A stretch of 64,000 nt of DNA from Ophelia neglecta. Lineage: Eukaryota. Shown piece after piece: positions 45,001 to 64,000 of the stretch. Each line of letters begins with the position of its first letter. Position 1 is the first letter of the stretch. The position numbers were made by a program. Where the stretch lies: NCBI GenBank assembly GCA_965285935.1, contig OZ260666.1:37200001-37264000 (forward strand). Direction: 5' to 3'.

Positions 45001-48000
45001 GAGGTATCCAAACCAGACCATGTTGCCACATGGCTTAAAGATGGCCAGCCAATCCCCAAAGATAGATTTGAGCCACATGTAGAAGGCACGAAACACACTC
45101 TGACAATTACTAATGCTCACTTAGATGATGAGGATAAATACACTATTAAGGTGGAAAGTGCTGAGTCTACGGGAAAGCTTGTCGTTGAGGGTGAGTTACC
45201 AGTTTGTCATTATGCTACTTTTTTCCATTACAAGTTTATTTAATGTCAGGGATATGGGGTTGATGTATGTGGGCTGTGGCCGATTGATTAATAAATTTGT
45301 TTCGTCTGCCGGTCACCCACTCTTCTTTTTTCTATATAAGTGCTTGAAAAATATATCTGTTCATCAACGAAATACATGTTAATTTTTTGACATTCACTAT
45401 ATTATGCAATATAACATTACAGAAGCACCAGCTGAATTCCTGAAGCCACTGAAGGACATAAAGGTAAAAGAGTTGGACACTGCTATGTTCAAGTGTTCCA
45501 TCTCTAAGGCCAACCTGAAAGTGAAATGGCTGAAAGATGGCAAGGAGATCACCATGGATGAGAGGGTCAGTGCTGTATGTGTAGACAACGACTACGAACT
45601 GTTGATCCTTAAATGTGAACTGGAAGACCAGTCAAAATATACCATTGTTGCTGAAGAAGGCGTTGAGTCGGTTGCTAAACTTACTGTTGAGGGTAAATAT
45701 TTTATACCATTATGTTATTGAAAATATAAAGAAATGTGTAAATATAGTAATTATAGATTCAGTATCACATGATTTTTTTTCAATTCTGTATGATTCTCTT
45801 GCAGAACTTCCAATTGAGTTTACTAAAGTCTTGTCCAACCTTGAGATCTATGAAAAGCAAACTGCTACATTCGAGACCGAAGTCTCCAAGCCTAACCAAC
45901 AGGCTAAATGGTTCCAGAACGGTGATGAGATCAAGCCTGGAACTCCTGATTGGGAACGCTTCCAGACCGTTGTTGATGGAAACATCCACAGACTTATCAT
46001 TACTGATGCCCACTTGGATGACACCAGGAAATACTCCATCAAAATCAAGGACAAGAAGTCATCTGCCAAGTTGACTGTTCTTGGTTAGTACTGTTTGTTT
46101 TCGAAATACCAGGACACCATAAAAAACATAAATATACTTTGGACACAATACATGTGAAATCGTATTCAAACACACAGGTAACCTGTATATTCATTTACAT
46201 GTACCTTGTTCTTGTTACCCTACAGAGGAACCGTTGGATATCCTGAAGCCCCCAAGTGATGTGGAGATTATGGAGACTGAGACTGCCACCCTTGAGTGTG
46301 AGGTCTCCAAAGCCAACCAGACCTCGAAATGGCTGAAAGAAGGAAGCAAGGAAATCAAAGATGGTGGCAGGTCAGCACAACCTATCTAATTTCATAAGAA
46401 CATCTTTGATTACTAAACAATATCACTAGTATTGTTATTTGTTTGCATCAGTAATTATAAAAATTATGTGCATGGGATAATATTTTAACATTTTAAGTTG
46501 GAGCTACAAAATTGCCTAACATATATTGTTGGTTATTTTTGTTAGTGAGAATGTATGTAACATTCCCGTTATTATAATAGATTTGAGATCAGGGTTGACG
46601 GAACGAAACACACACTGGTAATCAAGGACGCAGAGCTCGGTGACCAGGCTGAATACACTGTGGTTATTGCAGACAAGTCTGCTACTGCCAAAATTTTCGT
46701 AGGAGGTAAGCACAGGACCATAAAATACTCTTGTGTCTTGAAGCATTTACTAAATTCTTTTAGTAAGATACTGACTCTGTCAGGTTTAACAATTTCATTC
46801 ATATTGCTTACAATCCACAGAGGAGCCAGTTGAATTTATCCGTCACTTAGAGAACGTGACAATCACCGAGATCCCTGGCAAAGTCACATTTGAATGTGAG
46901 CTTTCCAAGGCCAACATCAAGGTATACTTATATCATTTTCACTTTTGGTGCTTCATTCCTCTAGAATAATTTTATCCTATATTACCATATCCAATAGCTT
47001 CATGGACCATTTTCATGTATATTTTAAACTGTTACTAAAATTACTATATTGAAATATTAAGTATTGCTGACAAGAGTTACATTCGATTAATTAATCTTTG
47101 AAGTATCTATGATGTGTTCTGGGGTTTCATCTCTCACTCATTTACCTCCTATAGGTACAATGGATGAAGGGAGACACTCCTATAGTCCAAAGTAGTAAAT
47201 ATAAAATCAGTATGGAGGGCAAGGTGCACCGGCTGACCATCACTGAAGTGGATGGTACAGATGTCTCTGAGTACACCGCTATGGCCAGGGGTAAAACGTC
47301 CAAGGCAGCATTATCTGTAGAAGGTGAACACTCTTTTTACTTCCCCCCAAACAACTCTTTGTATTTAGTTAATGTTTATTTTATGAGTTCGTTGTGTATA
47401 TGATCAATTCCAGATTGACAGATAAAGTTTTCCAATATTGTTGTGTTTCAGCTGCACCTAAATTTGGTGAGTTTAATGACCAGATGATTATGAAATCTGG
47501 AAGTTCTTCATCGGTGGACATACCATTTGTTGCTCACCCCCAGCCCACAGTCTCTGTGCAGTTTAAGGGAGGAGAGGTGAGAGACGCAAACAGGATCCTC
47601 ACTAAACTGACAGAGAACCAATCCAGCTTCTCTGTTAACAAGTCAGAGAGGCCAGATACAGGCGAATACACAATAACACTGGAAAACCAGTTCGGCAAGT
47701 CCACTGGTACCATCAAGGTTCAAGTATTAGGTGAGTACTCAAATGAGATTAAGAATTCAAATTATATGAATCACTACACTAATATGTAAAGCATGAATTA
47801 TCCAGAAAAAACGGGCATCTATAGCCAGCAGACAGAGCAATATCCATTATCAAGATTCTATTAAGTCGGCCCAGAACCAACAGGACCTGTCAGACGAACA
47901 GGATACAGCATCAGTTTTATATATGACTAGTACACAGACAAAATGTGCTGTTTTATTTTAGATAAACCAGGTCCACCATGTGACCTGGCAGTACCTGAAA

Positions 48001-63000: not shown

Positions 63001-64000
63001 AGAATGTCATATTCTATTTACCAGATAAGCCGAGTGTACCACTGGAATTCAAAACCACTGAGATCACAGAGAACTCGGTCTCATTGGACTGGGATGAACC
63101 TGAGGATGATGGAGGATCTGAGATCACTCAGTATGTCCTCGAGAAACGGGAGGCCGGCAAACGTGGATGGGCCTCTGCTGGCAACACTGAGGACCTGTCA
63201 TTTGATGCCGAAGGCCTGACAGAAGGTATGTGAATTCAATTTACATCCTGCAGTGTATGTCTGCGACTGAATTAGGTGCACTCTTTTGAGTGCAGTAATA
63301 TTAAATTAATAATATTTACCTTAAAGAATTTTTATGCAGCATTTGCATATAGGCTATAATACCAAGACCTCGGAGCCACACAGAAGTACACAAAGTATTT
63401 AAACATAAGTCAAAAAGTTGTGTACTAGACGAAAAGATAAGTTGGCATACCATTTTATGTGCCTGTAGCCCACTGAAGTGTTAATTTCTAGTATTACATG
63501 TATGTTCATTTGTTTGCAGGCACACCATACAACTTCCGCGTGGCAGCTGAGAATCAAGTTGGACGAGGAGAATTTACAGAACTTCCCAAGGCTGTCACTC
63601 CAAAGAGTCAATTTGGTGGGTACAACATATATGTTCTTCATTTATAGTTCACATGCTGAGAGTGCACAACAACTTATTTAGATGGGAAATAATTTTTCGA
63701 GGATATATTAAACGTGTTCTGAAGGGTGTTTTGAACCACATGGAAATAATAATCTATATTGGATGTTTTCCAAATATCTTGGTATTTTTGAAGAGCAAAT
63801 GTCTCGACAAAGTTTGATAACCCTCAGAATTTGGCAGTTACCAATATTTTTTTTGCATTTTCCTTTTTGGAGTAGTATATTCAAACAAATGCCAGGAACA
63901 GTGTTTGCTGTAACCTGCATGTTTGTATGAAATATTCAAATAACACATTAACTGGTGCTGCCAGATGTAGGTCATCATGACATAAAAACATATATAACGA

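Follow-up and report, generated by a model that had tools for sequence, protein, structure and literature searches.

The question raised by this stretch of 64,000 nucleotides from Ophelia neglecta (the whole of which is called the window here) is what kind of giant muscle protein is encoded in its downstream part, where Ig and Fn3 domains follow one another in a regular order, and whether the ten-domain period of that array reflects a function along the muscle filaments or the way in which the array grew.

Gene model and the ten-domain unit

The interval 46821-63615 (+ strand) is predicted to belong to a titin-like giant muscle gene, whose Fn3-containing, A-band-like part starts here. HMM profiles built from the window's own Ig and Fn3 domains mapped about 75 domains in the 64 kb, with all hits on the + strand, and the 33 domains located from 46835 to 63599 followed the order Ig-Ig-Fn3-Fn3-Fn3 through six and a half units; two split Ig domains had weak first halves, which were recovered separately. 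The Pfam models I-set and fn3 exceeded their cut-offs in all ten open frames examined (48.7-61.3 kb), and Rfam gave no matches in the window. On the same strand as the super-repeats, the upstream two-thirds of the window contain Ig tandems, exons for PEVK-like linkers and long stretches of unique sequence, including a tandem region of at least 19 Ig domains, some of them split by introns, directly upstream of the super-repeats (31982..46705, +; HMM map and splice model). The last exon of this region closes at 46705 with phase 1, a phase that fits the exon starting at 46821.

An independent exon model was built from frame-compatible splice sites, with exon connectivity across the 64 kb derived from phase and frame. 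All units described below are on the + strand and were recovered by both the HMM map and the splice model. Half A of super-repeat 1 (46821..49339; positions 1-5: Ig, Ig, Fn3, Fn3, Fn3), with a Pfam fn3 match in 48724-49356, comprises exons 46821-46921, 47155-47323, 47452-47730, 47962-48066, 48252-48443 and 48737-49339, and half B (49480..52211; positions 6-10), also matched by Pfam, comprises exons 49480-49767, 50017-50304, 50644-50795, 50922-51072, 51204-51503, 51796-51922 and 52045-52211, the whole unit amounting to 974 codons. Super-repeat 2 (973 codons; Pfam matches in both halves) consists of half A at 52415..54666 (exons 52415-52565, 52730-52851, 53040-53143, 53306-53483, 53615-53911 and 54061-54666) and half B at 54960..56694, in which Ig6 (54960-55247), Ig7 (55410-55697) and the triplet Fn8-Fn9-Fn10 (55810-56694) each occupy a single exon. 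Super-repeat 3 (977 codons; Pfam matches in half B) consists of half A at 56851..59202 (exons 56851-57123, 57376-57657, 57814-58110, 58251-58392, 58613-58773 and 58900-59202) and half B at 59339..61856 (exons 59339-59453, 59732-59904, 60084-60310, 60416-61228 and 61712-61856). Within the Ig at position 7 of this third unit lies a GC-AG intron (60311..60415, +; AAG/GCAAGT ... TAG/G); no in-frame GT was available at its donor site, and the junction gives back the Ig end of the single-exon copy in super-repeat 2. Only the start of super-repeat 4 (Ig1, Ig2 and Fn3; 62093..63615) is present, with exons 62093-62368, 62521-62802, 63025-63225 and 63520-63615; no more coding pieces were found after 63615 up to the end of the window at 64000, which falls inside this unit. 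The first-pass annotation had read a strict order of two Ig and three Fn3 domains with alternating A and B halves, unit boundaries at 46821, 52211/52415, 56694/56851, 61856/62093 and 63615, and three complete units of 974, 973 and 977 codons; the order was recovered by the own-domain HMM map and the boundaries and lengths by the splice model.

Mis-assembly is common in repetitive giant genes, yet it is most improbable that the array owes its form to a decayed or mis-assembled locus, with pseudo-exons or with a repeat that was collapsed or expanded: 3204 codons were walked through 37 exons with zero in-frame stops and consistent phases, all 36 introns have canonical splice sites (35 GT-AG and one GC-AG), conserved residues are retained, and the copies have diverged and are not near-identical.

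The repeat unit is ten domains, or about 975 residues, made of two related five-domain halves, A and B. The best partner of every domain (19/19 Fn3 and 14/14 Ig) lay 10 or 20 domains away, a multiple of ten in each case, and never at offset 5. Mean identity among Fn3 domains was 54.1% at offsets of 0 modulo 10, 44.8% at 5 modulo 10 and 37.2% at the others, and the corresponding values for Ig domains were 40.0%, 26.2% and 18.8%; the contrast between positions was equalled in none of 5000 label shuffles, for Fn3 and Ig alike. On a maximum-likelihood tree with 79 Fn3 rows, 6 changes (minimum 5) sufficed for the six position labels of the window, while shuffled labels required 13.0 on average and as few as observed in 0 of 200 shuffles. 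The linkers also recur by position, with KDPW after the second Fn3, KLPF after the fourth and KDPF after the fifth in all three complete units. The earlier claims that position-equivalent domains are most alike (33/33 best partners), that they would cluster modulo 10 in a phylogeny and that these three linker motifs recur were therefore all borne out. At the DNA level, copies shared only short, motif-sized matches (60-87% identity) and no long repeats, and the repeat is therefore an old one that only the protein shows.

Kinship of the modules with titin and other muscle proteins

In searches of solved structures, titin chains headed the matches of the Fn3 triplet and likewise those of each of the four Ig positions (1, 2, 6 and 7). 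The triplet encoded by the single exon 55810-56694 matched two titin chains of the thick filament, 8g4l_bm and 8q6t_I, with E values of ~1e-155 and ~45% identity, and the alignments to the titin C-zone were collinear, linker motifs included. At that level of identity to the solved chains, the gene is titin-like but is not that of a human or another vertebrate. The Ig queries were taken from super-repeat 3 for Ig1 and Ig2 and from super-repeat 2 for Ig7. Positions 2 and 7 matched the C-zone Igs that directly precede the triplets (8g4l_bm residues 303-381 and 685-773). C-zone chains were absent among all 35 matches of the position-1 Ig at E values up to 0.001, this Ig matching other titin chains of at least two Ig domains (tandem-Ig) and Igs of MyBP-C and obscurin; C-zone chains were also absent from the best 60 of 171 matches of the position-6 Ig, whose top match was 3b43, a six-Ig titin chain. 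The same division was seen when Igs were assigned to the window's position classes (1/6 versus 2/7), assignments that rest on identities of only 25-37%: in three fragments of named fish titins that show Ig/Fn3 repeat patterns, 24 of 27 Igs were closest to classes 2 or 7, and the single-piece Igs just upstream in the window were all (14/14) closest to classes 1 or 6 and none to 2 or 7.

Judged by these alignments, each half starts with an extra I-band-kind Ig, after which comes an Ig-Fn3-Fn3-Fn3 module; this module is homologous to the two Ig-Fn3-Fn3-Fn3 modules in the 11-domain C-zone repeat of vertebrate titin and aligns collinearly with them. The Ig matches suggest that half A corresponds to titin positions 4-7 and half B to positions 8-11, although the Fn3 triplet of the B half aligned slightly better with positions 5-7 (205 vs 194 bits).

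The vertebrate titin A-band contains the 11-domain super-repeat of the C-zone, Ig-(Fn3)2-Ig-(Fn3)3-Ig-(Fn3)3, and the 7-domain super-repeat of the D-zone. The window shares with the C-zone homologous I-set and Fn3 domains, the greatest likeness between position-equivalent domains, collinear Ig-Fn3-Fn3-Fn3 modules including the linkers between Fn3 domains, and a unit of similar size (974 residues in the window, 1084 in titin). It differs in having ten domains rather than 11 or 7, in lacking the Ig-Fn3-Fn3 module, in the extra I-band-kind Ig before each Ig-Fn3-Fn3-Fn3 and in the pairing of five-domain halves A and B. The vertebrate-type 7- and 11-domain order was not found in the window, whereas the named fish titins gave the 11-domain order with the window-derived HMMs; no short repeat of the D-zone kind was seen at the start of the window's Fn3-containing region. 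The domain maps thus agree with the earlier description of a design unlike both the vertebrate units and the Fn3-Fn3-Ig pattern of twitchin and projectin.

The Ig/Fn3 content itself would fit an orthologue of twitchin/projectin (UNC-22 type), which are likewise giant Ig/Fn3 proteins with 36-44% identity to the window's Fn3 exons, and automatic names on some relatives point the same way ('twitchin' for Helobdella P0279 in UniRef, 'twitchin-like' in Diadema). Such an origin is nevertheless highly unlikely: named twitchins have an Fn3-Fn3-Ig core, which was not found in the window, followed by a kinase-proximal block, and they form a separate paralogue in the same phyla; the window's exons matched the titin-like paralogue clearly better than they matched twitchins from the same phyla, two Fn3 triplet exons scoring 276-302 bits against the titin-like protein of Lineus and 166-186 bits against Lineus twitchin; and the window's upstream part, with its Ig tandems and PEVK-like exons, resembles an I-band region. 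The window's Ig pairs shared 23-33% identity with the kinase-proximal Ig-Ig blocks of twitchin, a level too low to judge kinship.

Myomesin (Ig-Ig-Fn3x5-Ig x5) also holds the string Ig-Ig-Fn3-Fn3-Fn3, but as a non-repeated unit in a single short M-band protein with a weak sequence match; in the searchable literature the one paper that came up for that string concerns myomesin (PMC3279349). The ecdysozoan I-band titins Sallimus, I-connectin and C. elegans TTN-1 resemble the window's upstream part in their Ig tandems, PEVK-like linkers and long unique sequence. Unlike the window, they have no long Ig/Fn3 super-repeat region according to two accounts (PMC12063666, PMC12198301).

The ten-domain layout in other spiralians

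The best database matches of the window exons were proteins of Lineus, Helobdella and rotifers (33-54% identity), and among database proteins of up to 2000-5000 residues none exceeded ~58% identity to any exon. Tandem Ig-Ig-Fn3-Fn3-Fn3 units like those of the window were found in the 'titin-like' protein of the nemertean Lineus longissimus (P0267), in the leech Helobdella robusta (HELRODRAFT_191479, P0279), in P0380, P0031 and P0112 and in the rotifer proteins P0327, P0330 and P0340. Among 145 new proteins from a representative search only one had them, the others being mostly vertebrate-type, twitchin-type or all-Fn3. The window's layout, A/B alternation and position-specific linkers were shared by P0267, P0112, P0380 and P0031 and more weakly by Helobdella, in which the linkers and the alternation are mostly present. 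When domain order was mapped onto window positions 1-10, agreement was 10/10 in P0112, 25/26 in P0380, 15/16 in P0031, 21/30 in Lineus P0267 (12/12 for its Igs) and 19/26 in Helobdella P0279, and the best partner lay at a multiple of ten for 30/30 domains of P0267, 25/26 of P0380 and 10/12 of P0031. Across records, the KDPW site held a W in 10 of 11 linkers of position 4, the KLPF site was occupied by an aromatic residue in all 10 linkers of position 8, the pattern K/R-D/E/N-x-F/Y was present in 10 of 10 linkers of position 9, and K-Y/F in 11 of 12 of position 10.

The relatives also depart from the window. Copies ten domains apart in Lineus P0267 are 97.5% identical; either a period of this kind can arise from block duplication alone, or the assembly cannot be relied on at this place. 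Helobdella P0279 has no self-periodicity (31.5% identity at offset 10 vs 32.1% at offset 5; partner at a multiple of ten for 9/26 domains). The number of five-domain units is 1-3 in the rotifer proteins, 5 in the leech model and at least 6.6 in the window, and a long Fn3 run follows the units in the leech model (after its five units), in the rotifer models and in P0138.

These differences bear on a further explanation, in which the ten-domain period is a trace of array growth by unequal crossing-over of a ten-domain block, the protein being perhaps filament-binding or a spacer and the period matching no filament repeat. The near-identity in Lineus, which marks the block as a recent duplication unit, the great variation of unit number between taxa and the loss of self-periodicity in the leech protein all favour it. 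The window copies, however, are old (40-54% protein identity, no long DNA repeats), position-specific order and linkers are kept in the nemertean, the leech, P0112, P0380 and P0031, and some single copies pair between records instead of inside one record (e.g. P0112_d03 with P0380_d14 at support 95 and P0112_d09 with P0380_d10 at support 93), which would be expected had individual units been kept. We consider growth alone a rather unlikely account, though a serious one.

Taken at the level of sequence, then, the window protein appears to be a spiralian 'mixed' titin-like paralogue, with tandem Ig-Ig-Fn3-Fn3-Fn3 units, A/B alternation and position-specific linkers, and its ten-domain unit is old and conserved in spiralian animals, because the layout is present in Lineus, in P0112, P0380 and P0031 and weakly in Helobdella, with 1-3 units in rotifers. 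No description of the ten-domain pattern was found in the searchable literature, though the proteins are public.

Axial length and a possible thick-filament role

Axial spacing in muscle filaments offers two periods for comparison, the myosin spacing of 14.3-14.5 nm and the tropomyosin/troponin period of ~38.5 nm. The 11-domain repeat of the titin C-zone is put at ~43 nm in one account (PMC10665226), and a solved C-zone chain has 11 domains in 1084 residues. At the resulting ~3.9 nm per domain, a ten-domain unit of 974 residues would span ~39 nm along the axis. The value of ~43 nm proposed in the first-pass annotation was obtained by assuming that each domain measures 4.3 nm and is not upheld by this scaling. 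A length of ~39 nm is not a multiple of 14.3-14.5 nm, which was counted against a thick-filament template; the lack of any simple multiple of this spacing likewise favours array growth as the source of the period.

The scaled length is close to the thin-filament period, and a unit fitted to the thin filament, in the manner of the vertebrate nebulin super-repeats, was therefore weighed, also in view of the Ig-linker modules by which kettin/Sallimus bind actin. We regard this as improbable: Fn3-rich Ig/Fn3 arrays (titin A-band, twitchin, MyBP-C) belong to thick-filament proteins, and the best solved matches of the window were titin and MyBP-C chains of thick-filament structures.

The explanation that we favour, with a probability of about 0.6, is that of a titin/connectin-like 'mixed' paralogue whose A-band-like ten-domain array would act as a thick-filament template or register through position-specific surfaces; both the thick-filament location and the ruler role are what we infer from sequence comparison. 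The array would lie along the thick filament like the titin C-zone, and its position-specific surfaces would recur once per ten domains (~39-43 nm), so that successive axial repeats of myosin or paramyosin would each meet the same binding face and the filament could thereby be templated or registered. The missing self-periodicity of the leech protein, the wide variation of unit number between taxa and the near-identical copies of Lineus were counted against the template reading. A more specific version is put forward only tentatively, as a possibility with the odds against it: a conserved template of the spiralians' own, (Ig + Ig-Fn3-Fn3-Fn3) taken twice, in which an I-band-type titin paralogue would carry the Ig-Fn3-Fn3-Fn3 module of the vertebrate C-zone and copy number would scale with filament length (five-domain units: 1-3 in rotifers, many in larger worms and molluscs).

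The 11-domain repeat of titin is the textbook protein ruler and is usually taken as a chordate feature, while invertebrates are described as dividing the functions of the I-band and of the A-band between two proteins; many spiralian muscles have long, paramyosin-rich filaments. Lophotrochozoan titins are remarked on only as 'more mixed' in one account (PMC12063666), and another (PMC12198301) calls it unresolved whether an A-band part was already present in the ancestral titin. A cross-phylum ten-domain unit derived from the Ig-Fn3-Fn3-Fn3 module would be a concrete, testable candidate for thick-filament templating in spiralians and may serve as a character for deciding on an A-band part in the ancestral titin. 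If the reading as a spiralian template is true, the Ig-Fn3-Fn3-Fn3 A-band module would, within the titin/Sallimus lineage, be older than the protostome-deuterostome split and would have been lost in ecdysozoans, which would bear on the question of fusion or split in titin evolution.

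Gene layout and exon model

The whole 64 kb window contained coding segments of a single giant Ig/Fn3 gene on the + strand, which carried every match to HMMs made from the window's own Ig and Fn3 domains; I-set and fn3 were confirmed with Pfam in all ten frames tested, and the sequence had zero N content. According to the HMM map, Ig tandems with short PEVK-like exons occupied 1-19 kb (+ strand), a second Ig tandem extended over 31982-46705 (+), and from 46821 to 63615 (+) 33 domains made up six and a half rounds of the strict order Ig-Ig-Fn3-Fn3-Fn3, with no coding pieces from there up to the window end at 64000. 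An uninterrupted open frame of 2585 codons on the gene's strand (20088-27842), rich in serine and acidic residues (S 15%, E 9%, D 8%) but lacking Pfam, Ig or Fn3 matches, could represent one giant exon of unique sequence in the spring region. Another acid-rich open frame (668 codons, 34580-36583), a putative exon flanked by Ig exons, had no Pfam match.

The I-band-like part (1663-8859) contained four copies of a module in which a PEVK-like linker exon precedes a two-Ig exon, sometimes with one additional Ig. Modules 1 and 2 (1.8 kb; 1663-2917 and 3481-4746) shared 92-98% DNA identity, indicating a recent tandem duplication, and modules 3 and 4 63-83%. A 45-base tandem repeat (1773-1908, 3 copies, 71% matches) was contained in a PEVK-like exon.

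For the repeated zone, splice sites were set independently of the first-pass annotation, as frame-compatible GT-AG pairs flanking each aligned core. The model of 46821-63615 comprised 37 exons and 36 introns, with 3204 codons free of stops and phase-1 introns at domain borders, and reproduced exactly the boundaries and sizes that had been proposed for three complete ten-domain units, namely 974 (46821-52211), 973 (52415-56694) and 977 codons (56851-61856). The sole non-GT donor among the 36 introns belonged to a GC-AG intron (AAG/GCAAGT, 60311-60415), which was called because the junction had no in-frame GT donor, the sequence then being read. Units 1 to 3 (46821-61856) contained 13, 9 and 11 exons, so that intron positions differed among them; Fn8-Fn9-Fn10, for instance, formed a single exon in unit 2 and four exons in unit 1. 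Intron gain or loss therefore took place once the units already existed.

A period of ten domains

Per-domain identity was calculated by aligning each exon piece to HMM columns and summing identities. The best partner was located 10 or 20 domains away for 19/19 Fn3 and 14/14 Ig domains, and never at a distance of five. Mean identity at offsets of 0 mod 10, 5 mod 10 and other values was 54.1%, 44.8% and 37.2% for Fn3, and 40.0%, 26.2% and 18.8% for Ig; for both domain types, the contrast was matched in none of 5000 label shuffles. A quick maximum-likelihood tree was built from 79 Fn3 rows over 95 columns, and many of its forks stayed unresolved; on it, the position labels of the window required 6 changes (minimum 5; shuffled mean 13.0; 6 or fewer in 0/200 shuffles). 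A single branch separated each of positions 4, 8 and 9 from all others (support 89, 87 and 73, respectively), and two changes were needed for each of positions 3, 5 and 10. The clustering by position modulo 10 put forward in the first-pass annotation was thus borne out by best partners, shuffles and tree labels, and the linker motifs it had named were present in all three complete units. Taken together, these results indicate that the unit consists of ten domains, arranged as two related five-domain halves (positions 1-5 and 6-10). DNA similarity between copies was confined to motif-sized matches (60-87% identity); the copies are therefore old.

Relatives and conservation of the unit

Relatives were sought among proteins of at most 2000-5000 residues; from the window, the queries were single exons of the spliced model, none being an Ig-Ig pair or a whole window unit. 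Tandem Ig-Ig-Fn3x3 units were found in 2 of 120 proteins listed for an Fn3 triplet exon (database proteins P0031 and P0112) and in one of 145 new proteins of a representative search (P0138). Used in turn as queries, P0031 and P0112 brought the 'titin-like' protein of Lineus longissimus (P0267), HELRODRAFT_191479 of the leech Helobdella robusta (P0279), P0380, three rotifer proteins (P0327, P0330 and P0340) and P0316, a Macrostomum protein of partial similarity. Either Fn3x3-Ig-Ig-Fn3x3 or Ig-Ig-Fn3x3-Ig-Ig was present in 13/395 stored proteins; two of these were fish titin fragments, each showing it just once and irregularly. The closest proteins to the window exons were P0112, P0267 and P0031 (31-62% identity, the extremes corresponding to short alignments). 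P0136 (2489 aa; 35-49% identity to window exons), also from the representative search, showed roughly two and a half copies of a different ten-domain period, Ig-Fn3x3-Ig-Ig-Fn3x2-Ig-Ig.

Two Fn3 triplet exons scored 276-302 bits against the Lineus titin-like protein vs. 166-186 against Lineus twitchin, and a twitchin identity was rejected on account of these lower scores; judged by sequence similarity, the gene is the 'titin-like' paralogue. The next-best matches of these exons were all-Fn3 'titin-like' proteins of sea urchin, starfish and acorn worm, which ranked above vertebrate titins and twitchins. This paralogue may also have a second zone made up of Fn3 only. In the leech protein, the three rotifer proteins and P0138, 9-14 or more Fn3 in a row came after the Ig-Ig-Fn3x3 zone, and 'titin-like' models of starfish, acorn worm and two molluscs (P0266, P0270, P0273, P0001 and P0003) consisted of 17-40 consecutive Fn3.

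By our own count, domains mapped in order to the window classes 1 to 10 in P0112 (10/10), P0380 (25/26), P0031 (15/16), Lineus P0267 (21/30, including all 12 Igs in the correct alternation) and Helobdella P0279 (19/26). Self-periodicity at ten was detected in P0267 (97.5% identity ten apart vs. 39% five apart; best partners 30/30), P0380 (49.3% vs. 35.6%; 25/26) and P0031 (40.4% vs. 33.1%; 10/12), and was absent in the Helobdella protein (31.5% vs. 32.1%; 9/26). Across records, the linker motif depended on position: a KDPW-like motif followed position 4, a KLPF-like one position 8, a KDPF/Y-like one position 9, and KY position 10. Some single copies paired in the Fn3 tree across records instead of within one. 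Domain order, period, linkers and cross-record pairing indicate that the unit is older than the split of these lineages. The near-identical Lineus copies would be explained either by a very recent expansion of the ten-domain block or by a fault in the assembly. P0031 and P0380 may be neighbouring pieces of one gene, which would then hold at least eight five-domain units.

Comparison with vertebrate titin and axial length

The best identity of the window to solved human and mouse titin chains was ~45%, and the Ig-Ig-Fn3-Fn3-Fn3 order was absent from the vertebrate titins examined; a human origin was set aside on these grounds. The single-exon Fn3 triplet of unit 2 (positions 8-10) was collinear with the two Fn3 triplets of the 11-domain C-zone chains from solved thick-filament structures (8g4l_bm and 8q6t_I), the alignment also covering the linkers between Fn3 domains, and Ig positions 2 and 7 matched the C-zone Igs directly before the triplets (8g4l_bm 303-381 and 685-773). 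Position 1 matched MyBP-C, obscurin Igs and further titin chains with at least two Ig domains; none of its 35 matches with E of 0.001 or below was a C-zone chain. For position 6, the best matches were the six-Ig titin chain 3b43 and MyBP-C, C-zone chains not being among the best 60 of 171. When Igs were assigned to the window's own position classes, as defined here, 24/27 from three named fish titin fragments that show repeated Ig/Fn3 patterns fell into class 2 or 7, and 14/14 single-piece Igs directly upstream in the window into class 1 or 6, at low identities (25-37%) in both cases. In our reading of these similarities, each half would combine an extra I-band-type Ig with an Ig-Fn3x3 module common to vertebrate titin, whose units comprise 3+4+4 domains, in contrast to (1+4)+(1+4) in the Ophelia gene.

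By homology to the titin C-zone, the most likely role of the super-repeat would be binding along the thick filament, through a surface recurring once per unit. The myosin spacing is 14.3-14.5 nm and the thin-filament period 38.5 nm. A ruler of ~43 nm had been proposed in the first-pass annotation from an assumed 4.3 nm per domain; scaling from the solved C-zone chain, whose 11 domains (1084 residues) span about 43 nm according to PMC10665226, gives ~3.9 nm per domain and hence ~39 nm for the Ophelia unit. A chain of ten domains of this kind could have either length, and the numerical argument for a ruler is weaker than originally worded. A ruler role would be plausible, its main rival being that the period merely records the duplication history of the array.

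Ig-Ig-Fn3-Fn3-Fn3 and five variant strings matched no titin paper in the literature searched, the only relevant match being myomesin. In their accessible parts, PMC12198301 calls bilaterian titin evolution unresolved and does not treat the pattern, and PMC10665226 deals with vertebrate titin only. As far as the searchable literature goes, the pattern is apparently undescribed in print, and domain maps of this kind could well be contained in the supplements of PMC12063666. The super-repeat itself is real and ancient; a novel version of the titin super-repeat concept, it already occurs in predicted proteins that are public.
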